DNA of 64,000 bases from NCBI GenBank assembly GCA_017456555.1, contig JAFTJF010000003.1:64404-128403 (forward strand), in the 5' to 3' direction. Shown here piece after piece: positions 5,811 through 33,323 of this stretch. How positions within the stretch are numbered: position 1 is the first letter of the stretch; every line of letters starts with the position of its first letter. A program made the translations under genes and the position numbers. This DNA is from Clostridia bacterium. GTDB lineage: Bacteria > Bacillota > Clostridia > TANB77 > CAG-508. The notes beneath the pieces are model-generated. The model was not told the origin of the DNA, did no database searches, and saw only the letters and a program-made list of their open reading frames with translations.

Positions 5811-6090
5811 TAATCCTCCTAAACTAAATCTTTATCGTTTCTATAGCCATTCATTATCTATTTTGTTTCTAAAATCTTTATTCTTTAATTTAAATTGTTT
5901 AATATAAATTTCATCATTTATATTATCTAAATATATTTATTTAAAATTTTATTAATATTTTTTCTATTCAAAACCTGTTTTCACCTAGATTTACTACATT
6001 TTTAATATTTTTTACAATTTTTTTACTATTGAATTTTGTCGAATTTTGATATATCATATTTTAGAAATTAAATTTCATGTGAGGAATTTT

Positions 6091-7323
6091 ATGAAACAAA
6101 AATTAAAATTTATTGTACTATTTTTACTGATGTTTATGTGTATTCAAACAAGTACGCTAGCAGCTGATGTAAAAATAAATTCAGAAGCAGGAATTCTGGT
6201 TGAAGTTAGCACTGGTAGAATTCTTTACGAAAAAAATTCTACTAAGCAAATGTATCCTGCAAGTACAACAAAAATTCTAACTGCAATACTTGTTTTAGAA
6301 AATTGCAATTTGACAGATATGGTAACTGTTAGAGAAACAGCATTAGCAAATATTCCAGATGGATATGTTACTTGTAATTTACAAATTGATGAAGAACTTT
6401 CTGTAAAAGATTTGCTTTATGCACTTATGATTCCTTCTGCTAATGACGCAGCTTATGTTTTAGCAGAACATGTTGCAGGTTCTGTTGATGCCTTTTCTAC
6501 AATGATGAATGATAAAGCAAGAGAACTTGGTTGTACAAGCACACATTTTGTTAACCCAAATGGAATTCATGATGATAGTCACTACTCAACTGCTTATGAT
6601 TTATATTTAATTGCAAATTACTGTATGAAAAATGAAACTTTTAGAGAAATTGTTGCAACAACAGAATACACTCTTCCTGCAACAGAAAAATATCCTACAG
6701 CAGATAGAGTTTTGAAAACAACAAATGAATTGATTAAACCTAATTCAAGAGGCTATTTCAAAAATGCAATTGGAATAAAAACTGGTTACACTTCTAAAGC
6801 TGGAAACTGTTTAGTGGCAGGTTCTTCAAGGGATAGTTTAGAATTTATCGCAGTTGTTCTTAATGGTGGTACAACAGATTCTGGTGAAAATGCAAGATAT
6901 GCTGATTCAAAAAAATTATTCAATTATGCTTATGATAATTTTACTTTAACAAAGATAATTGAAAAAGATTCTTTTGTTCAAAGTATTGAAGTTGAAAAAG
7001 GTACAAAAGAAACAAAAAATCTTGATTTAATAATTGATGAAAGCATTACAGTTGTAAATAATAAGTCAATCGATATGAATGATGTTATTCCAGAAATAAA
7101 AATAAATGAAAACATTGAAGCTCCAATTGCAGCAGGGCAAAAACTTGGAACTATAAAATATAAAGTTGATGATATTGAATATAGCGCAAATTTACTTGCT
7201 AAAACAGAAGTTGTTCGAGTTAATTATAGTGTTTATTTCATCATAGCTGGAGTAATTTTACTTTTCATTTCTTTTAAAATGTTAAATTCAAAATCTAAGA
7301 AAAAACGTAAAAAAAGAAAATAA
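6091..7323 (+). CDS. D-alanyl-D-alanine carboxypeptidase (PBP5/DacB-DacF type)
   Basis: Signal peptide, SxxK (ASTTK), SxN (SAND), KTG (KTGYT), C-terminal TM segment and basic tail. Start moved from the track's 6046 to the ATG at 6091, behind a GAGGAA RBS. Confidence 0.9.
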   Translation: MKQKLKFIVLFLLMFMCIQTSTLAADVKINSEAGILVEVSTGRILYEKNSTKQMYPASTTKILTAILVLENCNLTDMVTVRETALANIPDGYVTCNLQIDEELSVKDLLYALMIPSANDAAYVLAEHVAGSVDAFSTMMNDKARELGCTSTHFVNPNGIHDDSHYSTAYDLYLIANYCMKNETFREIVATTEYTLPATEKYPTADRVLKTTNELIKPNSRGYFKNAIGIKTGYTSKAGNCLVAGSSRDSLEFIAVVLNGGTTDSGENARYADSKKLFNYAYDNFTLTKIIEKDSFVQSIEVEKGTKETKNLDLIIDESITVVNNKSIDMNDVIPEIKINENIEAPIAAGQKLGTIKYKVDDIEYSANLLAKTEVVRVNYSVYFIIAGVILLFISFKMLNSKSKKKRKKRK

Positions 7324-7337
7324 TTTTTTGATATTAT

Positions 7338-7370
7338 AAAGACTTGCAAATAAAAATGCAAGTCTTTTTT
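7338..7370 (+). terminator. intrinsic terminator
   Basis: AAAGACTTGCA-loop-TGCAAGTCTTT hairpin followed by a T-run. Confidence 0.75.
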
Positions 7371-7438
7371 ATAATTTACATAGATTTTTTTAAATTATAT
7401 GTTATAATTTAATTATATTTACAAAGGAGTTTTTAATT

Positions 7439-12853: not shown

Positions 12854-13115
12854 TCTCCTCTTTACGAGTCGACTTCCAAATTAAATAAGCTAAATAAGTA
12901 ACAGTTTTTGTTTTTCCTATATTTATCGATGGAAAATCTGCTCTTTTAAATATTTCATTTGCAGTTGCTTCTCCACAAAGTAAGTCTTTCATTACTTCTT
13001 TTACAGTCCAATTTTGAAATGGATCTTTTACTTTTTTTATTGCTTCAACTATCGCCACCTTTAATAATTCAATTTCATCTTTGGTATCAATTATATTAAT
13101 TACCTTTTCTTCCAT
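12828..13115 (-). CDS. small DNA-binding / excisionase-like protein
   Basis: 95 aa. It overlaps both the integrase start and the relaxase stop. The position and the WTVKEVMKDL..TANEIFKR segment fit an Xis-type HTH. The functional call is weak. Confidence 0.35.
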   Translation of the reverse strand: MEEKVINIIDTKDEIELLKVAIVEAIKKVKDPFQNWTVKEVMKDLLCGEATANEIFKRADFPSINIGKTKTVTYLAYLIWKSTRKEESDANERID

Positions 13116-14082
13116 CTTCTTTAATTCCTCTCACAAAATTATTTACTATTGACTTTAATCTTTCTATAGGAAAATCAAACAAGATGCTCACACACTCAAA
13201 AGTTTTATTAATATAATGTTTAAACCATCTATTATTTTTTTCAATTTTATAATAATCTTCTTCAAGTACTTCATAATCTTTTTCTAATTGTTCAATCTTA
13301 TTTATGTTATTATCATGAATTACTTTTACTTTTGTATATTGTTTTGCTAATGTATTAAATTTTTTAATAACTCTCCTATAATCTTCTTTCAACTCCTTAA
13401 CATCATTTATTTCTTTTTCTTGTTCCAATTTAATTGATTGTTTTTCTAATTCTTGCATTTCATAATTTGTCATTACTTTTAATTTTTCTATTGGAATATG
13501 TTCATTTTTTTCATTTTCTCCTCGTTCTAAATCAAATCCTGCTCTTGTCATATATTTATAAAAATTATCTTGTAAAATTTTATAGCTATTCTTACCTTTC
13601 CAAAATTCTGAACAAGAAATTTTGTCAATCATTTTTCCACTTTTTTTCTCCAAAATGTGTACAACTGGTAAGAAAACTAAATGCATATGTGGAGTTGATT
13701 CGTCCATGTGTACTTTTGCAGAAACAATATACTGTTCCCCTAAATTCTTATAATTTGCCACAAATTTATATGCTGTTTCAAAATATCTTTTTGTTTCTTC
13801 TTCACCAATTTCATTAAAGAAATCTTTATCCGAAGTAATTATATATTCACAAGCTACATTACTATTTTTCTTAATCTGACCTTTTAAGTTATACTCTTGT
13901 TTTATTTCGTTAAACATTTTCGTATATGGTTTAAAACATCTTTTAAGTGAATAATTCTTATTTGATTTATTCCTATCTATTTCTTTGTTTGAATAAGCTG
14001 AATTTTTTCGCTCGTTATGTCTAAAAAGAACATTCAATTTATCAATAGTATATTTTGAATTTCTAATTATCGCATAACTCAC
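13096..14082 (-). CDS. mob: MobV-family relaxase (Mob/Pre plasmid recombination enzyme)
   Basis: Motif I HNER (LFRHNERK) and motif III HxDE..PHxH (VHMDESTPHMHLVFLPV), followed by a coiled-coil C-terminus. Confidence 0.85.
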   Translation of the reverse strand: MSYAIIRNSKYTIDKLNVLFRHNERKNSAYSNKEIDRNKSNKNYSLKRCFKPYTKMFNEIKQEYNLKGQIKKNSNVACEYIITSDKDFFNEIGEEETKRYFETAYKFVANYKNLGEQYIVSAKVHMDESTPHMHLVFLPVVHILEKKSGKMIDKISCSEFWKGKNSYKILQDNFYKYMTRAGFDLERGENEKNEHIPIEKLKVMTNYEMQELEKQSIKLEQEKEINDVKELKEDYRRVIKKFNTLAKQYTKVKVIHDNNINKIEQLEKDYEVLEEDYYKIEKNNRWFKHYINKTFECVSILFDFPIERLKSIVNNFVRGIKEDGRKGN

Positions 14083-14092
14083 ATAATCTCAC

Positions 14093-14485
14093 CTATCTTT
14101 CTTTTTTACCTCTCATTTTTCCCATATATCTTGTTAACATACCTATTGATTCACTTATTGAATTTTGCATTGATTCTCCCAAAGTTGTGTCTTCATTTAA
14201 CCAATCATGATAAAATTCATCTAATATATCACCCTGTATTAACATCATTTCTTTTTCTGCATCGTGAAGTTCCATATATTTAAGTTCTTCTTTTATTTCT
14301 TCTTTACAAATTAATTCATAAGCTTTTTCAATTATTTTTCCTTTTGGTAATTTCTTTAATCCTCTTTTGAATTGATTAAATTCTCTTTCAAGCATTGTTT
14401 CTAACGCATCATCTAAATCAATTACTTGTACTCCTCTTTCGTCAATTTCATATTCAACTTTATTTAATAAATTATTGTTTTTCAT
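14093..14485 (-). CDS. hypothetical protein (DUF3848-like, common in clostridial mobile elements)
   Basis: 130-aa ORF directly upstream of mob. The IIEKAYELICKEEI segment resembles DUF3848. Weak call. Confidence 0.35.
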   Translation of the reverse strand: MKNNNLLNKVEYEIDERGVQVIDLDDALETMLEREFNQFKRGLKKLPKGKIIEKAYELICKEEIKEELKYMELHDAEKEMMLIQGDILDEFYHDWLNEDTTLGESMQNSISESIGMLTRYMGKMRGKKER

Positions 14486-14596
14486 TTTTTTATCTCCTTA
14501 TTATTTTATTTAAGCAAAGCTTCGTAGCCTTACTATATTTCTAATTACTTCTTGCACTCACTAATTACACAAAGAACGGAAGTGCTATAACATACT

Positions 14597-14836
14597 AGAG
14601 AACTTTAAAAAAGTTCTCTGTATGATTAGGGGATAAATTCCCCTAATAACCCCTAGCATAATTGAAATTTATTAATCCTCTAATAGAGAACTATTATCGA
14701 TTAACCGTATCTATTAGACTTCTCTAATAGATAACTTAAATTTCTAATTATGATAAAAACAATTCAAAATATTTTTATTTAAAAATATATCTACTTGTTT
14801 TTATTTATCCAAGGTTCTCTACATAGAGAACCTTGG
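14597..14836. promoter_or_regulatory. candidate oriT / nic region (cluster of inverted repeats sharing an AGAGAAC core)
   Basis: IRs AGAGAAC-N9-GTTCTCT (14597..14619), TTAGGGGA-TAAA-TTCCCCTAA (14626..14646), TAATAG-AGAA-CTATTA (14691..14706) and CTATTAGA-CTTC-TCTAATAG (14711..14730). A perfect 12-bp-arm IR CCAAGGTTCTCT-ACAT-AGAGAACCTTGG lies at 14809..14836. The cluster is a non-coding gap upstream of the mob operon. Confidence 0.45.
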
Positions 14837-14881
14837 CCATTCACAAAAATATATAAATGAAATTTATACATTTTCGTGAAT

Positions 14882-15403
14882 TTATCTTTCTTGTGTATTT
14901 CTATTTTGTCTTTTTATTTCATCTAGTTCGTCTATATTGACTATTCCTTTTCGATATAACAAATCTAGTTCTTCATCATATTGTTGTTTTTCGTTTTTAA
15001 TACTTTGCTTCATCTCTTTGACTCCTTCTAGTGAATTAATATAAGTAGCCATATCTTCTTCACAAATAACTTTATAATCTTTAACTTCGATTTCATGTTT
15101 TTGTAATTTCTCCAATCTCTCAATAATGTCTTCTCTTACTTTGGCATTACATTTATTTAAAAATGGTCCAAAAGTAGTAATTATTTTTTCAGCAGTTGCG
15201 AAATCATAAATTTCCATATCTGTATGTACGAATTTATTGAAAAAATCTATTATAATGTCTGGAATATCTTCATATTTTGCAACCACTTCATCTGTTCTTG
15301 TTTTTATAAAAACTAATTTTTGATCACTTTCTAATAATTCTTTTATTTCTTCTTGTGTGTAAAATTGAATTTCTTCATTATTTCTCATTTTTAGATTTCT
15401 CAC
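14882..15403 (-). CDS. hypothetical island protein (173 aa)
   Basis: ORF that overlaps the upstream gene. No family recognised. Confidence 0.5.
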   Translation of the reverse strand: MRNLKMRNNEEIQFYTQEEIKELLESDQKLVFIKTRTDEVVAKYEDIPDIIIDFFNKFVHTDMEIYDFATAEKIITTFGPFLNKCNAKVREDIIERLEKLQKHEIEVKDYKVICEEDMATYINSLEGVKEMKQSIKNEKQQYDEELDLLYRKGIVNIDELDEIKRQNRNTQER

Positions 15404-15680
15404 TTTCTTTTTTCTTCTTTGTCAGTTGGTTATTCTTTTTTCTAAAAACAATTTCATAATCTGTACCAAAACATCCAAAACTACTTTTAAACTTCCTTAA
15501 TGTAACATCTAAAAGTCTTGTAAATTCTTCAAATGTTAAGTCTTCATCATAATTAAATACTTTTTCCTTTAATTCATTATCTTTTCTTTTTTGTTTTTCA
15601 AAAAAATCATCATCATTATAATCTTCTGCATAATCTTCATAATGCTCGATTCCAAGTATTCTTTCTATCCATTTACTCAT
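15378..15680 (-). CDS. hypothetical island protein (100 aa)
   Basis: ORF in an overlapping gene chain. No family recognised. Confidence 0.45.
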   Translation of the reverse strand: MSKWIERILGIEHYEDYAEDYNDDDFFEKQKRKDNELKEKVFNYDEDLTFEEFTRLLDVTLRKFKSSFGCFGTDYEIVFRKKNNQLTKKKKESEKSKNEK

Positions 15681-15837
15681 CTATAATCTCCTTGTATTTG
15701 TTTTTAATCCATTGTTTGTATTGTCCGTTTCTTGAAAAATGACTTGATTGTTTTCTGTATTTTCTAAATACATACTTGTATTCTGTATAAACTTCATTAA
15801 GCAACATTTGTAATTCGTCTTTTTCATTAATCTTCAT
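15673..15837 (-). CDS. small hypothetical protein (54 aa), not in the ORF track
   Basis: Manual translation gives MKINEKDELQMLLNEVYTEYKYVFRKYRKQSSHFSRNGQYKQWIKNKYKEIIDE. Its start overlaps the stop of 15827..16603, and its stop overlaps the start of 15378..15680 (ATGAGTAA). It fills an otherwise empty gap. Confidence 0.4.
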   Translation of the reverse strand: MKINEKDELQMLLNEVYTEYKYVFRKYRKQSSHFSRNGQYKQWIKNKYKEIIDE

Positions 15838-16603
15838 CCGATTCTTCTGCAAACTTTCTCAAAAACTCTAATATTATAAGTTGAATTCTTAAAAGCATTT
15901 TTAAAACACTCTCATCTCCTAACACAATATTAGGTGGTTCTACTCTATTAGGTTCTGTTGTTGTACTTGATTCTGGTGTTCTTTCTAAAACCAATTTTCC
16001 TTTATTATTACTATTAATCGAATTACTTGTTACCTCATTATCTTTTTTTGATTCTGAGGCATCCTCGTTCAAATTTACTGGGTTATTTTCTTGATTACTA
16101 CTAACCATTGGAACCAATCTAAAATTCTTTTCAAAATAACTATTACTTACATCAATATCATCTTTCTTTATTTCATTATTAATATCTCTTACTTTTCTTT
16201 TTCTTTTTTCTTCATATGCTCGTCTTTTTCTTTCAGCTCTTGTTAAATATCTTCCGTGTTCATCAAAATTTGTATAATCTATCCCTTGTCTTTCTAAAAA
16301 TCTAGCAACTTTTGTAGCTTCTTCAACATTTGAAAAGCTATAAAACTCTCCTTTTTCATTTTCTTTTACTGCAAATAATCTGCCTTTTATTGAAGTACCT
16401 ATACCCTTTCCTTTTACATCAACACATATATTGGCTAACATCGCATCCGAATTCTTTTTATAAATAATTGTGAAACTGTCACATTTAATTGTTGCTATTT
16501 CTCCACCAATTAATTTTTCCAAATCTTCTTTTGTATTCCATATAACTTTTACATTAGGTTTCTGTCCAACTTCTTTCAAAACTCCAAATAATTTATCTGA
16601 CAT
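15827..16603 (-). CDS. DUF3846 domain protein
   Basis: The N-terminal segment VLKEVGQKPNVKVIWNTKEDLEKLIGGEIATIK..RLFAVKENEKGEFYSFS matches the DUF3846 pattern seen in ICE/IME accessory regions. Confidence 0.5.
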   Translation of the reverse strand: MSDKLFGVLKEVGQKPNVKVIWNTKEDLEKLIGGEIATIKCDSFTIIYKKNSDAMLANICVDVKGKGIGTSIKGRLFAVKENEKGEFYSFSNVEEATKVARFLERQGIDYTNFDEHGRYLTRAERKRRAYEEKRKRKVRDINNEIKKDDIDVSNSYFEKNFRLVPMVSSNQENNPVNLNEDASESKKDNEVTSNSINSNNKGKLVLERTPESSTTTEPNRVEPPNIVLGDESVLKMLLRIQLIILEFLRKFAEESDED

Positions 16604-17951
16604 CTACTTCATCTCCTTTTTCTTCGAGATCAAATAGATAAACAAACTCATGCTTTTTACAAAGTTCTTTTGCTTCTTCAATTTGTTCATCTGTTAAGCT
16701 TTTAAAATCTGCATTTTCATAATCATCACCAATAAAGAAACAATCTCCTGCAATATAATCGAATTCAAAAACTAAATTAGGCAGCAGCCCATCTAACTTT
16801 CCTTCTTCATTACATACTAAAAGTAATCCATCTGATACATATACAACTTCAATCAACCCATCAACTAATCTTTGTTTAGCCTTTAAGGTATTTTCGATTT
16901 CAATTTCTTCTGGTTCTTGACCAACTTTTTTCATAAGAACTCTCAATTTTTCTTTCGATTTTTCATCATATTCTTCTTCATCTTCTCCTACTTCGAAAAA
17001 TCTTCTATCAATTTTGCTATCAAATAATTCTGCATCATATTCTCTTGGAGCTTCTTTCACAATCATTAGTTTTTTAGATTTATGTTTTTGAAAACAAATT
17101 AAATCTTTAAAAGTTCCAAATTCTAAATGTTTTCTTGCTTTCTCATAAACTTCCTCATTATCCGTTGCAAAGAAAACTCTTGTTACTCCATTCATTCTTG
17201 CTATGTTTCTAAAATAATTTTTTAATTCTTCTTTTGGCATATTAACCATTCGATTAGGTATATCTAAAACCATTTTTATTCTACCTTGACCATCTGTTAA
17301 TATCGAAATAGAGTAATCTTTTGAATTTTTCACATTATGCATCATATTTGCAAAATCTTCTCTACTTAAAATTTTCACATCATAAATATTCTTTTCTTTT
17401 AAAACCCTATCCATTTCTTCATTTTTTTCTTTATTTACTGGAATATGATTTTCTATTTCTGGGAAACCATATTCGTCAATCGAAATCCATGCATAAGTAT
17501 CTGTATTAACAATTAAATGTCCTTTAAAACCTCTTACTTTACAAGCAAAATCTACTGTTGTTCTAATATCAATTAAAGATGCTTTGGCATTATCACTTGG
17601 GTGATTATGAACTAAATAATATCCATTAGCTCCTAGCCTATTCATTCTGTTATAAAATTTATTAAAGCATTTTTCAGAATTCACAATTCCTCTTTTATCT
17701 GCTTTTAATATACTTACTTCATTAGGCAATCTACTTGTTATTGATTCATACCCTACAATAGAATTATCTTTCATATAAACTACTCTAAAAGTTTCAAATC
17801 TTTCATCTCTAAATATAGACGCAATCTCAGCTAAATCATCTTTTGTATTAACTAATCTGTGGTTTAAGTTTATATAACCTTTCTCATATAAACTTTCTTC
17901 AATTCTTTTATAAATAATTTTGGTATTGTTATTCATTTGAAGCACCACCAT
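16593..17951 (-). CDS. JAB/MPN (RadC-like) domain protein with a C-terminal DUF3846 domain
   Basis: JAMM-like motif YYLVHNHPSDNAKASLIDI. C-terminus LRVLMKKVGQEPEEIEIENTLKAKQRLVDGLIEVVY..LLVCNEEGKLDGL is DUF3846-like. An alternative start ATG lies at 17936. Confidence 0.6.
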   Translation of the reverse strand: MVVLQMNNNTKIIYKRIEESLYEKGYINLNHRLVNTKDDLAEIASIFRDERFETFRVVYMKDNSIVGYESITSRLPNEVSILKADKRGIVNSEKCFNKFYNRMNRLGANGYYLVHNHPSDNAKASLIDIRTTVDFACKVRGFKGHLIVNTDTYAWISIDEYGFPEIENHIPVNKEKNEEMDRVLKEKNIYDVKILSREDFANMMHNVKNSKDYSISILTDGQGRIKMVLDIPNRMVNMPKEELKNYFRNIARMNGVTRVFFATDNEEVYEKARKHLEFGTFKDLICFQKHKSKKLMIVKEAPREYDAELFDSKIDRRFFEVGEDEEEYDEKSKEKLRVLMKKVGQEPEEIEIENTLKAKQRLVDGLIEVVYVSDGLLLVCNEEGKLDGLLPNLVFEFDYIAGDCFFIGDDYENADFKSLTDEQIEEAKELCKKHEFVYLFDLEEKGDEVDVR

Positions 17952-18360
17952 TCCTTTTAGATTTCTTTTCGATTTCCTTTTTCACATTATCTTTAAAATG
18001 ATTAATTGCTTTTGTTTTAATTTCAATAACTTCTTTTTTTGTCATTTTCATATCTGAACAAGCTTTTTCTAAATCACTACTTTCAAATACTGCTACAAAT
18101 AATGCTTGTTTTTCTATTAAAGGAAGTTTCTTCATAGCTTCATAATAAATTTCATTTGTAAAAACATCTTCTAAATGTTTATAACTAACATTTTCTATTC
18201 CTTTGTTTTTATTTCTTAAAAAATTTTGATATTCTTCTTTTTCAAGTTTTCTTTGTATCCTTTTTGTATCGTTTGGATTTTCAAAATGATAATCTCTTAA
18301 CTTTGAAAACATTCTTCCTTTGTTCCATTTTTCACTTTTACGAATTTTTTTCTTTTTCAT
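17929..18360 (-). CDS. small sigma-70 region-4-like / HTH protein
   Basis: LPLIEKQALFVAVFESSDLEKACSDMKMTKKEVIEIKTKAINHFK resembles a sigma region 4 HTH, comparable to ORF7-like regulators of conjugative transposons. Weak call. Confidence 0.35.
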   Translation of the reverse strand: MKKKKIRKSEKWNKGRMFSKLRDYHFENPNDTKRIQRKLEKEEYQNFLRNKNKGIENVSYKHLEDVFTNEIYYEAMKKLPLIEKQALFVAVFESSDLEKACSDMKMTKKEVIEIKTKAINHFKDNVKKEIEKKSKRNGGASNE

Positions 18361-18600
18361 TTCTACACCTCAAATTAATTAAAATTTGATTTCCGGAAAT
18401 CTTATTTTTCGTTCGAACTAATTTCATGATAGCATGAAAAAAAGAACTTTTTTCTAAGTCCTTTAATCACATTTAATCCCCTTTAATCTCCGTTAAACTT
18501 TTGTTCGTCATTTAAAAGCAACAAAAAAAGCAAAGTCAGTTTACATCTAACTTTGCTCATATTCTATATATATAATTTTTACTATATTTTTTATTCGTTT

Positions 18601-19323
18601 TTATAAAACTTTATAGTCTGTTAGGTTAGTTGTATTCATAATCCAACCTTGTTTTTTCTTCATTATTTCATATTCTTCGTCTGTAATTATCAATCTTTCT
18701 TTTAAATCATTTACTTCTTTTTCATCATCATGATTAATTTGTTTTTTTAATATTATACATTTTTTAGTTAATGGTTGATTTGTTTCATCATAAGTACCAT
18801 TAATCATTCCCATATATCTTTCATCACTTGCATATTTTAAATTAACTACCAACTCTACTTTTTCAAATCGTTTATTAGTAGCATAATAATTTTTCATATA
18901 AATATATGCAATATCTTGACTTGATTCCAATGATCCAACATACAATATCTTATCATTTTCAATATTTTTAAAATATACCTTTTGAAATCCACCCTCTGAT
19001 TTTATTTCAAGTTCAAAGCATAATAAATTATTAGTAAATCCTATATAATACAAATATATATTATTTACTGGAAATGGGTTATTTGAGTTTTCTCTTGATT
19101 CTTCTATTCTATTTATATTAGCTAAATCATCAAATCCTACATCTAAAACATTACAAATTTCAAGAACAGTTAATAAATCTGGCATTAAAACATTTCTTTC
19201 GTATTTATATATTGTTGTTTCTGTCTTATTTAATTTTTCAGCAATTTCTTTTATAGAAACCTTTTTTGATTTTCTCGCTTTTCTTAATAATTCGCCAAAC
19301 TTATATGAATCTAAATTGTACAT
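18601..19323 (-). CDS. XRE-family HTH transcriptional regulator with a 170-aa uncharacterised C-terminal domain
   Basis: HTH LLRKARKSKKVSIKEIAEKLNKTETTIYKYERNVLMPDLLTVLEICNVL. Start moved to the ATG at 19323 (MYNLDSYKF), behind a GGGGGA RBS. Confidence 0.8.
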   Translation of the reverse strand: MYNLDSYKFGELLRKARKSKKVSIKEIAEKLNKTETTIYKYERNVLMPDLLTVLEICNVLDVGFDDLANINRIEESRENSNNPFPVNNIYLYYIGFTNNLLCFELEIKSEGGFQKVYFKNIENDKILYVGSLESSQDIAYIYMKNYYATNKRFEKVELVVNLKYASDERYMGMINGTYDETNQPLTKKCIILKKQINHDDEKEVNDLKERLIITDEEYEIMKKKQGWIMNTTNLTDYKVL

Positions 19324-19403
19324 AATAAATCCCCCAATCATCAAACTCTATATACTTAATTATACCACTTTTAAGACACTTTGTCCAACAAGGACACTTT
19401 TGT

Positions 19404-20452: not shown

Positions 20453-20484
20453 AAAGCAGACTTCATGTGTCTGCTTTTTATTTT
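20451..20484. terminator. bidirectional terminator closing the EPS operon and the Spo0A_C-like gene
   Basis: AAGCAGAC-TTCATGT-GTCTGCTT flanked by A and T runs. Confidence 0.75.
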
Positions 20485-29457: not shown

Positions 29458-30195
29458 CTATACTGCTCCCTCTTTTTTTAAAACAGATATTACAGTTTTA
29501 AATAAAATTCCTATATCCATAAAAATAGAATTATTAACAACATAATGAAATTCCATTTCAACTCTTTCTTCGTAAGAAGTTTCACTTCTTCCATGTGCTG
29601 CCCAATATCCAGTCACACCTGGTTTAACACTTAAAACTGCATTTTTAAATTCTCCAAATTTTTCAATTTCACCATCTATTACAGCTCTTGGACCTACTAA
29701 ACTCATCTCTCCTTTTAGTACGTTTAAAAACTGTGGAAATTCATCAAGAGATGTTTTTCTTAATATTTTTCCTATTTTTGTAATTCTTGGATCATCGTTC
29801 AATTTTCTATGTTCTTCCCACTCTTTTCTAGCATCTTCATCTTCTTTAAGAAGTTTTTCTAAAACTTCTTGTGAATTCATACACATACTTCTAAATTTAT
29901 ACATTTTAAAGTGTTTTCCATTTTTTCCAATTCTTTCATGAGAATAGAAAATTGGTCCAAAATCCTTATTTAAAATATTTATTATTTTCACAACAATAGT
30001 AAGTGGAATTAATATAATAATCCCTACTATCGCCCCAACTATATCCATAATTCTTTTGAAAAAAGAATTTATATATTTTATGTATTTAATACTTTTCCTA
30101 AAAACAATTAATCCTTGAATTTCTGAATTTAATTGATTGTTTTCAGTAACTTCTGTTTGTTCAAAAGTTTGTAAAACTCCTTCATTTATATTCAT
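29458..30195 (-). CDS. undecaprenyl-phosphate sugar phosphotransferase (small monotopic PGT, Bac_transf family)
   Basis: FKRIMDIVGAIVGIIILIPL..PIFYSHERIGKNGKHFKMYKFRSM..DEFPQFLNVLKGEMSLVGPRA. Confidence 0.9.
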   Translation of the reverse strand: MNINEGVLQTFEQTEVTENNQLNSEIQGLIVFRKSIKYIKYINSFFKRIMDIVGAIVGIIILIPLTIVVKIINILNKDFGPIFYSHERIGKNGKHFKMYKFRSMCMNSQEVLEKLLKEDEDARKEWEEHRKLNDDPRITKIGKILRKTSLDEFPQFLNVLKGEMSLVGPRAVIDGEIEKFGEFKNAVLSVKPGVTGYWAAHGRSETSYEERVEMEFHYVVNNSIFMDIGILFKTVISVLKKEGAV

Positions 30196-30366
30196 CTTCT
30201 ACATCCTTTTTTAATTTTTCATTAAAAATAATTTTGGAAACTCTGAGTATATTTTGATTCAATGAATCACTTCTTTATATGCACTTCTAGTACATAATGC
30301 CGATACCCAAGCAAATTAAATTTTTCATATAGAAAAAATCAATTACCTATCTATTCCTAGTAGGAT

Positions 30367-31596
30367 TTAATCTAAAATAAGTCCAAATTTTTTCAGACAC
30401 ATTTTTCCAATATTCATTGCAGTATTAAAATAATAATTCCCATTATGACCATTCTCACATGAGAATTCACTTTCATTTCTCTTCACTTTTGCTCTACATT
30501 TATGACATTTACTTGCTGTGTAATTTTGTCTAACAGTTGTAATAAGTATTCCTGCTCTAAAAGACTTATAAGATAAATAATTTATAATTATTCTTCTTAG
30601 TGTTATTGGACTGTATTTTCCAACTTTATGCCCAAATCCAACAACATCATCTTCTAATTTTGTTATAGAAATTACTTTGACATTGTTTTCTAAACAGAAA
30701 TCAATTATTTCTTTACTAACTTTGTGAGCTGTATTTTGTCTAATGCGATTTAGTTTTTCCCAATATGTCCTATGGTCTGCTTTATCTAGTGTTTTCTTTC
30801 CATTTTGTCTATGTTTCTTAATTTGCTTCAAAATCTTATCTGTTTGAAACTTGTAATAATTTCCACCAGAAATAAATTTTGATTTTACAAATTCTCCATT
30901 TCGGTTTAAAATAGTGCAGATTGCAATATTATCTGTATTAGAAAAACTAATTCCACACACCCTCAAATTTTCATCTTGCATTCTTTCTTTAACTGGTCTT
31001 ACATCTTCTACAATTTCTCTGACAGGAAGATGCATCATTACATATCGAGAATTAATAACAAGAGTCGGTGACATACTTTCTAAGTTTTCATCAAACGCTC
31101 TGCCTTTCAATTTTGCTTTAAACCACTCCCATTTATAACCATTCCAAAGTTTAAGCATTACAGAATCTTTTTTTAATTCTTTATACATTCCTTGATAAAA
31201 AACAGGAGAACAATTAAATTCAGTTGTAATCGATGGTTCTTTTCCTTTTTTCCCCTCTTGTTTCTCATAATCACTTAATAGTGAAATATAAGACCTTGCA
31301 GAACCAATTGCTTGATTTATTGCTGATCTTCTAAAATATGTTGGTAATTCCATATCTAAATAATTCTTAGGAACATCGCCATTTCGACTAATAATTGTTA
31401 TTTTTTCAAGCTCTCTCAAACAATATTGATTACTTAAATTTAAAAACTCTATATTTTCTAGTAATAAGTTGTAATAAAATAAAACAACTTGGTTATAAAT
31501 ATTCTTAGTAAGTTTTACAAAATCCATATGATTGATATAAAGTCTCAACTTATATGTAATTGTGCAATATCCAGCCTTATTTTCAGTTAATTCCAT
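30367..31596 (-). CDS. TnpB-like (IS200/IS605 OrfB-type) protein with apparent loss of RuvC catalytic residues
   Basis: TnpB hallmarks: N-terminus ITYKLRLY, LPTYFRRSAINQAIGSARSY, Zn-ribbon CHKC..C. The RuvC-I position reads GISFS instead of GxDxG. The RuvC-III position reads YYFNTAMNIG instead of xxDxNAAxNI. No Y1 TnpA gene is adjacent. Confidence 0.7.
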   Translation of the reverse strand: MELTENKAGYCTITYKLRLYINHMDFVKLTKNIYNQVVLFYYNLLLENIEFLNLSNQYCLRELEKITIISRNGDVPKNYLDMELPTYFRRSAINQAIGSARSYISLLSDYEKQEGKKGKEPSITTEFNCSPVFYQGMYKELKKDSVMLKLWNGYKWEWFKAKLKGRAFDENLESMSPTLVINSRYVMMHLPVREIVEDVRPVKERMQDENLRVCGISFSNTDNIAICTILNRNGEFVKSKFISGGNYYKFQTDKILKQIKKHRQNGKKTLDKADHRTYWEKLNRIRQNTAHKVSKEIIDFCLENNVKVISITKLEDDVVGFGHKVGKYSPITLRRIIINYLSYKSFRAGILITTVRQNYTASKCHKCRAKVKRNESEFSCENGHNGNYYFNTAMNIGKMCLKKFGLILD

Positions 31597-31618
31597 ATAT
31601 CACACCAACCTTTTTTAT

Positions 31619-31646
31619 TTTCGTTAAATATGCTATTTAACGAAAA
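31619..31646. repeat. left inverted core site (IR-L) of the invertible cassette
   Basis: TTTCGTTAAATATGCTATTTAACGAAAA, internally palindromic (TTCGTTAAATA-TGC-TATTTAACGAA). Its reverse complement recurs at 32739..32766 with 26/28 identity. Confidence 0.75.
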
Positions 31647-31672
31647 TAACCTCATTATAAATTACTTATGAG

Positions 31673-31701
31673 ATTATATCAAACATGTATATAAATTACA
31701 A
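31673..31701 (-). promoter_or_regulatory. extended -10 promoter (TTGTAA-17-TGATATAAT) inside the cassette, firing toward IR-L and the TnpB-like/EPS operon
   Basis: Minus strand: TTGTAA at 31701..31696, a 17-nt spacer, TATAAT at 31678..31673, preceded by TG at 31681..31680. Confidence 0.55.
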
Positions 31702-31769
31702 GGAAATTTCGACATTTTTCTATGTAAATTTTTTGTGTATTCGGCAGAGCCGTAAGAAAGGGGATTTCA

Positions 31770-32699
31770 TTGTTCAAGATTAAACATTTATTTTTTACAA
31801 AAGATATTTATTTTTATACTATTATAGATAGTTGGTTAATCTATAAATATAACTCAGTAAAAGAATCGACCTATTTAAAATATAAATATATGATAAAAAA
31901 ATATCTTTATCCTGAATTAAAATATAAAACATTAAAAGAGCTTATCAATTATGACTATAATAATTTTATAAGTAAGTTTTATTATTTAAATAACAATACC
32001 ATAAAAACTTTAATAACCATATTAAAATCAATTCTTAAATATACAGAAAGAAAACATAATGTTGATTTAAAATTAGATTTAATTCAATATCCAAAAACAT
32101 TAAAAAAAGAATTAGAAATATTTTCTGATAAAGAAAAACAAAAATTAATATCTTATTGTTATAATGATAATTCTCTGAAATCAATAGGGATATTAATCTG
32201 TTTATATACAGGAATAAGATTAGGGGAACTTTGTGCATTGAAGTGGAAAGACATTAATTTAAAAACAGATATAATTTCCATTAACGAAACATTACAAAGA
32301 GCTTATGATAATGACTCAACAAAAATTATAATAGGACCTCCCAAATCAACTTCATCTATAAGAAAAATACCTATAAACAAAAAACTTCATAATATTTTAT
32401 ATTCGGTGTATAAGCTCAATAAATATGATAGTAATGCTTATTTTTTAACAGGAACTATTGATAAATTTATAGAACCTCGTAACTATCAATATACTTTCAA
32501 AAAAATCCAAAAAAATTTAAATATACCAAATCATAATTTCCATATATTAAGGCACACATTTGCAACAGACTGTATAAAAATAAATATGGATGTAAAATCA
32601 TTAAGTAGAATATTAGGACATGCAAATGTGAATATAACGCTTAATAAATATGTTCATCCATCTTTTGATTCTACCAAAAAATATTTAGAGAAAATCTAA
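31770..32699 (+). CDS. tyrosine recombinase (XerC/D-like, putative invertase)
   Basis: TTG start behind a GAAAGGGGA RBS. GIRLGELCALKWKDI (Arg I), HILRHTFATDC (HxxR), LGHANVNITLNKYVH (His..Tyr). Confidence 0.85.
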   Translation: MFKIKHLFFTKDIYFYTIIDSWLIYKYNSVKESTYLKYKYMIKKYLYPELKYKTLKELINYDYNNFISKFYYLNNNTIKTLITILKSILKYTERKHNVDLKLDLIQYPKTLKKELEIFSDKEKQKLISYCYNDNSLKSIGILICLYTGIRLGELCALKWKDINLKTDIISINETLQRAYDNDSTKIIIGPPKSTSSIRKIPINKKLHNILYSVYKLNKYDSNAYFLTGTIDKFIEPRNYQYTFKKIQKNLNIPNHNFHILRHTFATDCIKINMDVKSLSRILGHANVNITLNKYVHPSFDSTKKYLEKI

Positions 32700-32701
32700 G
32701 G

Positions 32702-32742
32702 CTCGTATAAAGATTTCAATCTTTATATGAGTCTTTTTTTTT
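32702..32742 (+). terminator. intrinsic terminator of the recombinase gene, abutting IR-R
   Basis: 13-bp stem CTCGTATAAAGAT-TTCA-ATCTTTATATGAG followed by a T9 run. Confidence 0.8.
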
Positions 32743-32766
32743 CGTCGAATAGCATATTTAACGAAA
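32739..32766. repeat. right inverted core site (IR-R) of the invertible cassette
   Basis: TTTTCGTCGAATAGCATATTTAACGAAA. Its reverse complement is TTTCGTTAAATATGCTATTCGACGAAAA, which matches IR-L at 26/28 positions. Confidence 0.75.
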
Positions 32767-32783: not shown

Positions 32784-32809
32784 AGCAAATGAATCTTCGT
32801 TCATTTGCT
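32784..32809. terminator. bidirectional terminator just outside IR-R
   Basis: AGCAAATGA-N8-TCATTTGCT flanked by A6 and a T-rich run. It overlaps the stop codon of the ORF at 32801. Confidence 0.65.
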
Positions 32810-33091
32810 TTTCTTCTTATTATCATTTAATGATTCTACCATTAATGAGTTTGCAAGAGAAAAACCATATTTGAAACCGACTCTCATCATATTAATTCCT
32901 TTTTCTTGATTTAAGTCCATACAATCAGAAAGCATTCTTTTAATATCTTTATTAAATCTTTTTCTAACATTATCTTCGCTCTCTTCTGCAAGTTCTGACA
33001 ATTTTAAATATCTTTCATCTCTTTCTAGTTTTTCAAATAGTTTATTCTCATAATTATAATAAAGTTCTTCAAGTGAATTTTCAATTTCCAC
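32801..33091 (-). CDS. hypothetical small protein (96 aa from the GTG start)
   Basis: The ORF in the track starts at 33148. A GTG at 33091 behind a GGGGTGA RBS is the more plausible start. No family recognised. Confidence 0.4.
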   Translation of the reverse strand: MEIENSLEELYYNYENKLFEKLERDERYLKLSELAEESEDNVRKRFNKDIKRMLSDCMDLNQEKGINMMRVGFKYGFSLANSLMVESLNDNKKKSK

Positions 33092-33323
33092 TTTTTCACC
33101 CCCATTAATAACCAAATTTATATTAATGGTAACACATAAAAACCCCATTTTCTACTTTTTTTGATGATAAAAGTGTTGAGACCGTAAAGCTTTCAGCCAA
33201 ACATCTTGAAATTACTCATAACTTTTTTTAACTGTTTGGGGACTTTTTAAACTTTTAAACTCATTTTCAAACAAAAACACAAACAAAATCTCTATACTCC
33301 TTGAAAATACTCATCAAAAACCC

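Follow-up and report, generated by a model that had tools for sequence, protein, structure and literature searches.

Nuclease-dead TnpB homologues that act with guide RNAs (gRNAs), the TldRs, have been described in fliC-, oppF- and csrA-associated clades; TldRs of the oppF clade use a 9-nt guide, and the oppA target in E. faecalis lies downstream of the transcription start site (bioRxiv 10.1101/2023.11.30.569447; PMC13622181). Only these three TldR clades have a known biological role, these roles concerning flagellin, csrA/flagellin and oligopeptide import. The dCas12f-sigmaE system activates transcription with an ECF sigma factor and CRISPR-type guides (PMC13472631). In the literature that we searched on TldR and dCas12f-sigmaE, a polysaccharide-associated TldR clade was not found. 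Polysaccharide loci have regulators of other kinds: in Bacteroides, the protein-only regulators UpxY and UpxZ, a NusG-like antiterminator and its inhibitor, stand at the head of phase-variable capsule loci, and EAR (eps-associated RNA) and LoaP are leader elements of polysaccharide operons in Firmicutes. Here we describe a structured RNA encoded in a 64,000-nt stretch of a Clostridia genome (the window), which is very probably the guide-RNA-type partner of an adjacent nuclease-dead TnpB. It appears to belong to a further TldR-like clade, widespread in gut Clostridia and found at capsule and exopolysaccharide (EPS) operons, often behind DNA-inversion switches.

The RNA is encoded in a 171-nt spacer (30196..30366) between a TnpB-like ORF (30367..31596, minus strand) and the ORF of a Bac_transf priming sugar transferase (29458..30195, minus strand; assigned by Pfam); the ORF ends at 30367 and 30195 flank the spacer exactly as a preliminary description of this DNA had placed it. 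The transferase is the first biosynthetic gene of a 10-gene Wzx/Wzy operon reaching position 20484, in which the TnpB-like ORF is followed by the priming transferase, a GT2 glycosyltransferase, a pyruvyl transferase, an FrhB-like Fe-S protein, a GT1 glycosyltransferase, Wzy, a DUF6625 protein, Wzx and an acyltransferase. The spacer had been called GC-enriched, which is not the case: its GC content of 25.7% equals the window mean (25.7%), and 14 of the 32 intergenic segments in the window (median 24.6%) reach or exceed it, a mild enrichment (28.6%) being limited to the scaffold part defined below. The claim that it is unusually structured finds no support in the single sequence, whose minimum free energy of −27.1 kcal/mol corresponds to a z-score of −1.45 and is equalled by 13 of 200 shuffles, whereas the comparison across loci bears it out through covariation. 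The minus strand within 30196..30366 holds no sigma-70-like site, in agreement with the earlier statement that no promoter is recognisable there, and no intrinsic terminator was found within the spacer, both of which fit co-transcription of the TnpB-like gene with the EPS genes.

Alignment of homologous spacers recovered a conserved structured scaffold beside homologous TnpB-like genes. In the window, this scaffold RNA comprises about 125 nt (30244..30368, minus strand) and extends from an AAATCC that overlaps the stop codon to the 3' strand of a pseudoknot, as delimited by the covariance model R1, RNAalifold and pair counts. It consists of five helices and the pseudoknot, with compensatory changes as support in more than 45 loci; the four motifs quoted in the preliminary description are all present and coincide with conserved helices, namely P1 (30364-30346), P2 (30344-30314), the small hairpin with the pseudoknot loop and P3 (30312-30278), and P4 (30269-30255). 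On the minus strand, helix P1 (CCTACTA ... TAGATAGG; 30346..30364) has seven pairs, four of them changed on both sides, with 90% of the alignment cells paired, and the long hairpin P2 with its TATAT loop (30314..30344) has 12 pairs, 11 of them changed on both sides. The small GCT/GGC hairpin that follows (30299..30312; three pairs, 100% paired, two covarying) exposes the loop TGGGTAT (30309-30303), which forms the 5' strand of the pseudoknot and pairs with ATACTCA (30244..30250; 98% of the cells paired in alignment A5). Helix P3 (TATGTAC ... GTGCATA; 30278..30296) has seven pairs, 99% paired and four changed on both sides. Helix P4 (TGATTCA t TGAATCA; 30255..30269; alignments A4 and A5) is variable and missing from some loci, and its core G-C and A-U pairs are kept in all 14 sequences that have the helix.

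The RNAalifold structure from a 19-locus alignment contains 29 pairs, 21 of them with compensatory changes; the pseudoknot was added to it by eye and the full structure was then scored on a 16-sequence alignment. In that alignment, 93.5% of the cells of the 39 pairs are paired, compared with 30-47% when the partners are slid, 24 of the 39 pairs have changed on both sides, and 0 of 500 shuffles matched the observed value on any measure. A script located the pseudoknot pairing in about 70 loci, where it is formed by more than 20 distinct pairs of complementary hexamers, including GGGTAT/ATGCCC, GAATAT/ATATTC, GAACGC/GCGTTC, CAGCAC/GTGCTG, TAGCAC/GTGCTA and GACCAC/GTGGTC. The covariance model R1 scores 127 bits on the window (E 4e-27). 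Rfam 15 gave no family for the RNA, with no relevant match in the window region (E up to 10) or in six related loci (E up to 1).

RNA and gene are strictly coupled. Related loci contain 60 further R1 matches, every one of them on the same strand as the TnpB-like gene, and the significant matches adjacent to a gene share its strand in 49 of 49 cases, 44 lying directly downstream and five directly upstream of the gene. The downstream matches begin between −29 and +92 nt relative to the stop codon. The assumption that the scaffold overlaps the 3' end of the gene is not confirmed: in the window its start coincides with the stop codon, at other loci it begins as much as 92 nt farther on, and in five loci it lies upstream of the gene. 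Each of six whole genomes contains exactly one TnpB-like gene and one RNA, side by side, and tandem gene-RNA modules occur at two loci. There, two dead-TnpB genes stand in tandem (L074:655-2041 and 6001-7387; L036:780-2163 and 6001-7194) separated by two genes that encode about 200 and about 1000 aa; an RNA copy lies behind each gene in L074, and R1 detects the first copy only in L036. The RNA is absent from all 120 further genomes searched in the window's own order, and the TnpB-like gene from all 60 further genomes searched in the family of Anaerotruncus colihominis. Of the earlier proposal of an omega/reRNA-like RNA, the scaffold is upheld by the covariation, the pseudoknot placed before a 3' tail, the strict one-to-one adjacency and the co-orientation in all loci; the guide tail, to which we return below, is borne out only in part.

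The protein encoded by the TnpB-like gene (P0001, 409 aa) contains a TNB (Cas12f1-like) domain and nothing else according to Pfam, and scores 48 bits with the NCBIfam model guided_TnpB, against a cut-off of 100. Its AF2 model, based on 32 homologues, has a pLDDT of 89.9, and the best Foldseek matches of this model are full-length Cas12f/TnpB ternary complexes (E 1e-15, TM about 0.6). When P0001 is aligned with relatives that retain Asp-Glu-Asp, its RuvC triad positions read S217, T312 and Y389, and among 32 family members D or E occurs at RuvC-I or RuvC-II in none and D at RuvC-III in one. Residues 1-200 carry PF27142 (Aq_aa04), a recent Pfam family shared with active IS605/IS607 TnpBs of cyanobacteria and Chloroflexi (cf. 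P0116 and P0144). The family forms 84 clusters at 90% identity and has at least 136 cluster representatives (50% identity) at E < 1e-30; a scan of one genome per species gave 191 matching stretches, in Clostridia and mostly in Lachnospiraceae. The nearest relatives with an intact Asp-Glu-Asp triad adjoin a Y1 TnpA (IS605 type, L100) or a serine resolvase (IS607 type, L101-L103); P0116, the closest active relative, is known from one 2.4-kb contig, and its further homologues are at most 43% identical. Because it combines the TnpB/Cas12f fold and a lost triad with IS605/IS607 TnpBs as its nearest intact relatives, P0001 is a domesticated, nuclease-dead TnpB derived from IS605/IS607 elements. R1 also has a weak match (E 0.001), covering a start of the form AAATCC-P1-GGT-P2, that falls within the 3' end of an IS605 relative's ORF, a modest sign that the RNA, too, may descend from a transposon omega RNA.

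Such an ancestry raises the question of whether the hairpins might belong to DNA rather than RNA. IS200/IS605 ends carry subterminal hairpins, and the IS605 relative L100 has such hairpins near both ends of its contig, so that the helices could be read as single-stranded DNA structures of a still-mobile right end that a transposase recognises. However, neither a Y1 nor a serine transposase stands beside the gene, which has one copy per genome in six genomes and a fixed context at the head of polysaccharide operons, and five helices with a pseudoknot far exceed a transposon-end hairpin. These observations already contradict a mobile end, and we give it next to no credence.

The genomic context is equally constant. 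Among 66 loci, the first co-directional gene downstream of the module belongs to polysaccharide synthesis in nearly all: Bac_transf in 21, Polysacc_synt_2/CapD-like in 15, GT2 in eight, GT4 in six and GT1 in five, with nucleotidyl transferases and DegT-type aminotransferases among the remainder. On the other side of the TnpB-like gene, and facing it, lie two overlapping strong promoter-like sites (31654..31701, minus strand; TTGTAA-17-TATAAT with TG, and TTGATA-17-TATAAT). They are contained in a recombinase cassette (31619-32766) bounded by 31-nt inverted repeats (31619-31649 and 32736-32766) that are 90% complementary. Among close relatives, the 309-aa tyrosine recombinase is encoded on the plus strand in L002 and L081 and on the minus strand in the window, L084 and L085. 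The promoter-proximal repeat arm (31615-31649) contains a perfect 16-nt palindrome, TTATTTTCGTTAAATA / TATTTAACGAAAATAA; within the 5' leader of the TnpB-like gene, the arm precedes the ribosome-binding site (RBS) by about 20 nt. Mobile-element genes surround the operon (13096-19344 and 32801-33148), encoding a Mob_Pre relaxase, RadC/DUF3846, an HTH regulator, DUF6809 and a recombinase; at a related locus, Mob_Pre, DUF6809 and recombinase genes lie directly upstream of the module (L081:428-2813). Together with the lack of the RNA in the 120 other genomes of the order, the mobile-element genes around the operon (Mob_Pre, DUF6809, recombinase) fit a mobile island and suggest that the polysaccharide operon region is mobilisable.

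Taken together, the one-to-one adjacency, the dead TnpB, the polysaccharide context and the IS605/IS607 TnpBs as nearest intact relatives lead us to regard the spacer RNA as a TldR-like partner RNA. The comparisons firmly support a module of the TldR type, composed of a dead TnpB and a co-evolving pseudoknotted scaffold and situated at the head of polysaccharide operons.

What follows the scaffold departs from the conserved scaffold with a hypervariable guide that the preliminary description had anticipated. In the window, a guide-equivalent tail, GAG + TTTCCAAAAT (30231..30243, minus strand), is invariant in seven loci with proteins 64-93% identical to P0001, and is succeeded by an A/T-rich leader that contains the RBS of the priming transferase (30196..30230, minus strand; RBS at about 30204-30208) and differs in sequence and length among close relatives. 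The general layout is the pseudoknot, one base, rAG, 4-10 nt kept within a clade, an A-rich variable stretch and the next RBS, so that a short clade-conserved segment and a variable leader stand where a hypervariable guide was expected. The tail of the window's clade is TTTCCAAAAT, those of neighbouring clades are ATGCCAAATT, ATTCCAAATT and TTTCCGAATT, that of Eubacterium is TTTTAAAT, and Lachnospiraceae clades have TTATAAA or GTATAAA. The next start codon follows the scaffold at a median distance of 44 nt, with most values in the range 23-153 nt, and the layout leaves space for a guide of at least 11 nt. Occlusion of the RBS by the guide channel as a general principle was ruled out, the distance to the RBS ranging from 11 to more than 100 nt, and anti-Shine-Dalgarno pairing by the tail, inspected by eye, showed no conservation.

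The tail instead resembles coding sequence. In AT-rich clades it reads GAG-NTN-CCN, a damaged CAA and then TTN, like the site coding for an E-x-P-Q motif, and its middle triplet is TTT, ATG, ATT, TTA or GTT, all codons for residues found at that position of the transferase motif. The tail GAG + TTTCCAAAAT thus looks homologous to the DNA coding for the E-x-P-Q motif of priming sugar transferases. In Blautia and Eubacterium, the GC-rich clades, shuffled tails fit the motif at least as well as the real ones (AAG + TTATAAA... and GAG + TTTTAAAT...); inspected by eye, the latter resemble decayed copies of the motif, and their appearance suggests that a long guide is not maintained in those clades. 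The tail has the look of sequence that bordered an ancestral insertion at a T[AT]GAT site within the gene of a priming transferase; in TnpB systems, such a flank is the guide by construction.

Such an origin could also mean that the RNA is a decaying, functionless relic, made up of the omega RNA and the right end of an old IS605/IS607 insertion, and the descent of the family from IS605/IS607 TnpBs, the flank-like tail and its degradation in many clades are what a relic would leave. It would hardly account for compensatory changes that keep the helices between loci whose proteins are only 31-38% identical to that of the window, for a spacer whose conservation among close relatives (proteins 75-93% identical) equals or exceeds that of the coding sequence, or for a gene that is intact and, in the window's 1.67-Mb genome, present in a single copy with no TnpA nearby. 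A relic is already disfavoured by the covariation, and we regard it as very improbable.

For a functional guide-type RNA, the tail should point to a target, and the best lead comes from A. colihominis. It began with a scan of the complete genome (3.56 Mb) with a 13-nt tail, which gave one hit on the codons for E-L-P-Q-L-I, the most conserved Bac_transf motif. The 17-mer consisting of GAG and the tail, GAGTTATCACAATTAAT, has two sites with at most two mismatches in this genome, namely itself and the E-L-P-Q-L-I site (one mismatch), compared with 0 sites for the reversed control and a chance expectation that we estimate at about 5e-4. Of the only two Bac_transf genes in A. colihominis, the one with the match heads a second polysaccharide locus, which has no TnpB-like gene; the transferase of the module's own operon matches the tail at just 8 of 15 positions. 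The matched site (about 3,548,806-3,548,822) follows TTAGAT, and the DNA coding for the RNA itself has GTCGG at that place. The match of 16 of 17 positions is convincing in that one genome only, and makes A. colihominis a candidate for at least one genome in which the tail still specifies the priming transferase of a rival locus.

Six of 17 tails share their first 8 nt or more with a Bac_transf site in their own genome, compared with 7.1% when tails are set against genomes of other clades (n = 224), and counting by clade gives four of 11; these figures concern related, non-independent genomes, on which a motif idea formed on one hit was subsequently tested. The five bases before the Glu codon are TAGAT (19 sites), TTGAT (nine), TAGAC (three) or TGGAT (two), and TAGAT/TTGAT before the E-x-P-Q site is a possible TAM. 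TTGAT is the TAM of ISDra2 TnpB, which the candidate T[AT]GAT resembles. As further observations on Bac_transf genes in related genomes, tandem pairs of Bac_transf domains occur outside the module's locus (L130, G006:C8:59181-60413; L134, G005:C14:11510-12745), and it is in these pairs that G005 and G006 have their best GAGTTTCC matches to the tail; the same tandem arrangement is present at G000:C6:101962-103185. A Bac_transf pseudogene with 10 in-frame stops (L176, G130:C8:84290-84871) lies in the genome of the loci L017 and L018, and the module of L018 adjoins degraded transferase fragments.

In the window's own genome, the corresponding candidate target lies in the priming transferase of the operon itself (29730..29747, minus strand), where TTGAT is followed by GAATTTCCACAGT and L-D-E-F-P-Q is encoded; it matches the guide GAGTTTCCAAAAT weakly, at 10 of 13 positions. 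The three motif-bearing transferase sites of this genome all match the tail at 10 of 13 positions, each with GAA rather than GAG, and with the TAM filter 21 sites in the genome match equally well, compared with 17 for the reversed guide, which is chance level. Tail matches within the window are likewise at chance level (17 versus 12.4 +/- 3.7). No tail match of at least 11 of 12 was found at the homologous place within about 6 kb in 18 loci; in multi-copy genomes, the search for cross-locus targets returned only matching paralogous tails; the ATGCCAAATT-type tail gave chance-level hits in unrelated coding contexts in three genomes of its clade; and in two complete genomes, those of A. colihominis and Blautia producta, the 20 nt after the scaffold occur at no second site. 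The window's tail does have a perfect 20-nt copy (TTTCCAAAATTATTTTTAAT) about 45 kb before the window start (G000:C5:19396-19415; L104:3997-4016), where it runs antisense to the mRNA of a cyclic-glucan-synthase-like GH94 gene (more than 1349 aa), close to the 3' end of that gene. As a conserved target it was rejected, a genome with an identical tail (G004) having seven mismatches at the orthologous site and near-matches elsewhere, and because the site is not conserved there, the match is probably a coincidence.

The scarcity of targets leads to the question of whether the RNA acts on DNA at all. It could instead be a cis-acting operon leader that works at the RNA level, through processive antitermination, mRNA stabilisation or processing, or translational control, with the dead TnpB at most an RNA-binding cofactor and with no DNA target. 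Its position is in keeping with this, since the scaffold is invariably followed closely by a start codon, be it that of the first polysaccharide gene or, in five loci, of the TnpB-like gene; long polysaccharide operons of other bacteria use EAR RNA, LoaP or UpxY; and both the lack of a distal 20-nt target in two complete genomes and the seemingly decayed tails of the GC-rich clades would be expected of a leader. However, the RNA never occurs without the TnpB-like gene in six whole genomes or about 80 loci. The pseudoknot beside a 3' tail and the weak similarity to the RNA of the IS605 relative fit a guide RNA, the variable RBS distance means that simple occlusion cannot be general, and the match of tail and target in A. 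colihominis would be unexpected. On balance, we consider a purely cis-acting leader unlikely and prefer the guide-RNA-type partner.

Based on these observations, we propose the following hypothetical mechanism, in which (i) the TnpB-like gene, the RNA and the polysaccharide genes would share a single transcript that starts at the promoter within the upstream recombinase cassette; (ii) the scaffold of about 125 nt, followed by the short guide-equivalent tail (GAG + TTTCCAAAAT), would be bound by the dead TnpB as its partner RNA; (iii) the ribonucleoprotein (RNP) would be directed most likely to the conserved L-D-E-x-P-Q coding site of priming sugar-transferase genes, where the Leu/Ile-Asp codons would supply the T[AT]GAT TAM and the Glu-x-Pro codons would pair with the start of the guide; and (iv) RNA polymerase would be blocked inside the target transferase gene. 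As the guide has the sense of the mRNA, its pairing partner would be the template strand, and Cas12-type roadblocks act in this orientation. That the module serves to target the DNA of priming-transferase genes is a tentative proposal, which we hold to be possible and distinctly less probable than the partnership of RNA and protein. Equally speculative is the wider scenario of an RNA-guided polysaccharide choice, in which the RNP of the locus that is switched on might block rival loci or throttle its own, using the L-D-E-x-P-Q target with the Leu/Ile-Asp codons as T[AT]GAT TAM, and in which the module might have arisen when an IS605-type element inserted at exactly this site. In many lineages, the module may instead work with a very short guide or at the RNA level.

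Surface glycans govern sensitivity to phages, recognition by the immune system and colonisation. If the scenario is true, an RNA-guided layer over phase variation would be a new control principle for commensal Firmicutes, and the polysaccharide switch would be an RNA-programmed counterpart of Bacteroides UpxZ. The module is predicted to be a compact natural DNA-binding RNP of about 400 aa, which could interest tool builders, and the RNA model together with the defined scaffold-tail junction makes it directly testable in cultured strains, among which A. colihominis DSM 17241, Blautia producta DSM 2950 and Eubacterium callanderi are carriers.

In comparison with known systems, the module is closest to the TldRs, with which it shares a RuvC-inactivated TnpB homologue outside a transposon, a scaffold RNA encoded beside it on its own strand and a constant association with one class of host genes. 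As in the oppF clade with its 9-nt guides, the guide may plausibly be short, and the candidate target in A. colihominis is intragenic, as is that of E. faecalis oppA. In contrast to the described TldRs, the module is tied to polysaccharide operons, often behind a DNA-inversion switch, its RNA lies in the leader of the operon that it heads and sometimes upstream of the gene, and its candidate target is a conserved coding motif rather than a promoter. With the omega RNA/reRNA of IS200/IS605 and IS607 TnpBs, such as that of ISDra2, it has in common a pseudoknotted scaffold beside a 3' guide-type tail and a matching protein fold, in addition to the nearest Asp-Glu-Asp-intact relatives of P0001 being IS605/IS607 TnpBs. 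It differs from a canonical omega RNA by having no transposase, no transposon ends, one copy per genome, a lost nuclease site, no Rfam family and a scaffold that does not overlap the 3' end of the ORF. The dCas12f-sigmaE system of Bacteroidetes (PMC13472631) likewise pairs a nuclease-dead miniature Cas12/TnpB-type protein with a guide RNA at carbohydrate-related operons, whereas no sigma gene is coupled to our module and the protein belongs to a different family. EAR and LoaP resemble it in that a structured RNA is part of a polysaccharide operon transcript; unlike these, our RNA is strictly linked to a TnpB-like gene, and it has no Rfam match to EAR. Finally, UpxY and UpxZ show no homology to the module and offer a parallel in logic only: the regulator is the first gene behind an invertible promoter, multi-locus genomes have one module per locus, and inhibition of a rival locus in trans is what the A. 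colihominis match suggests.
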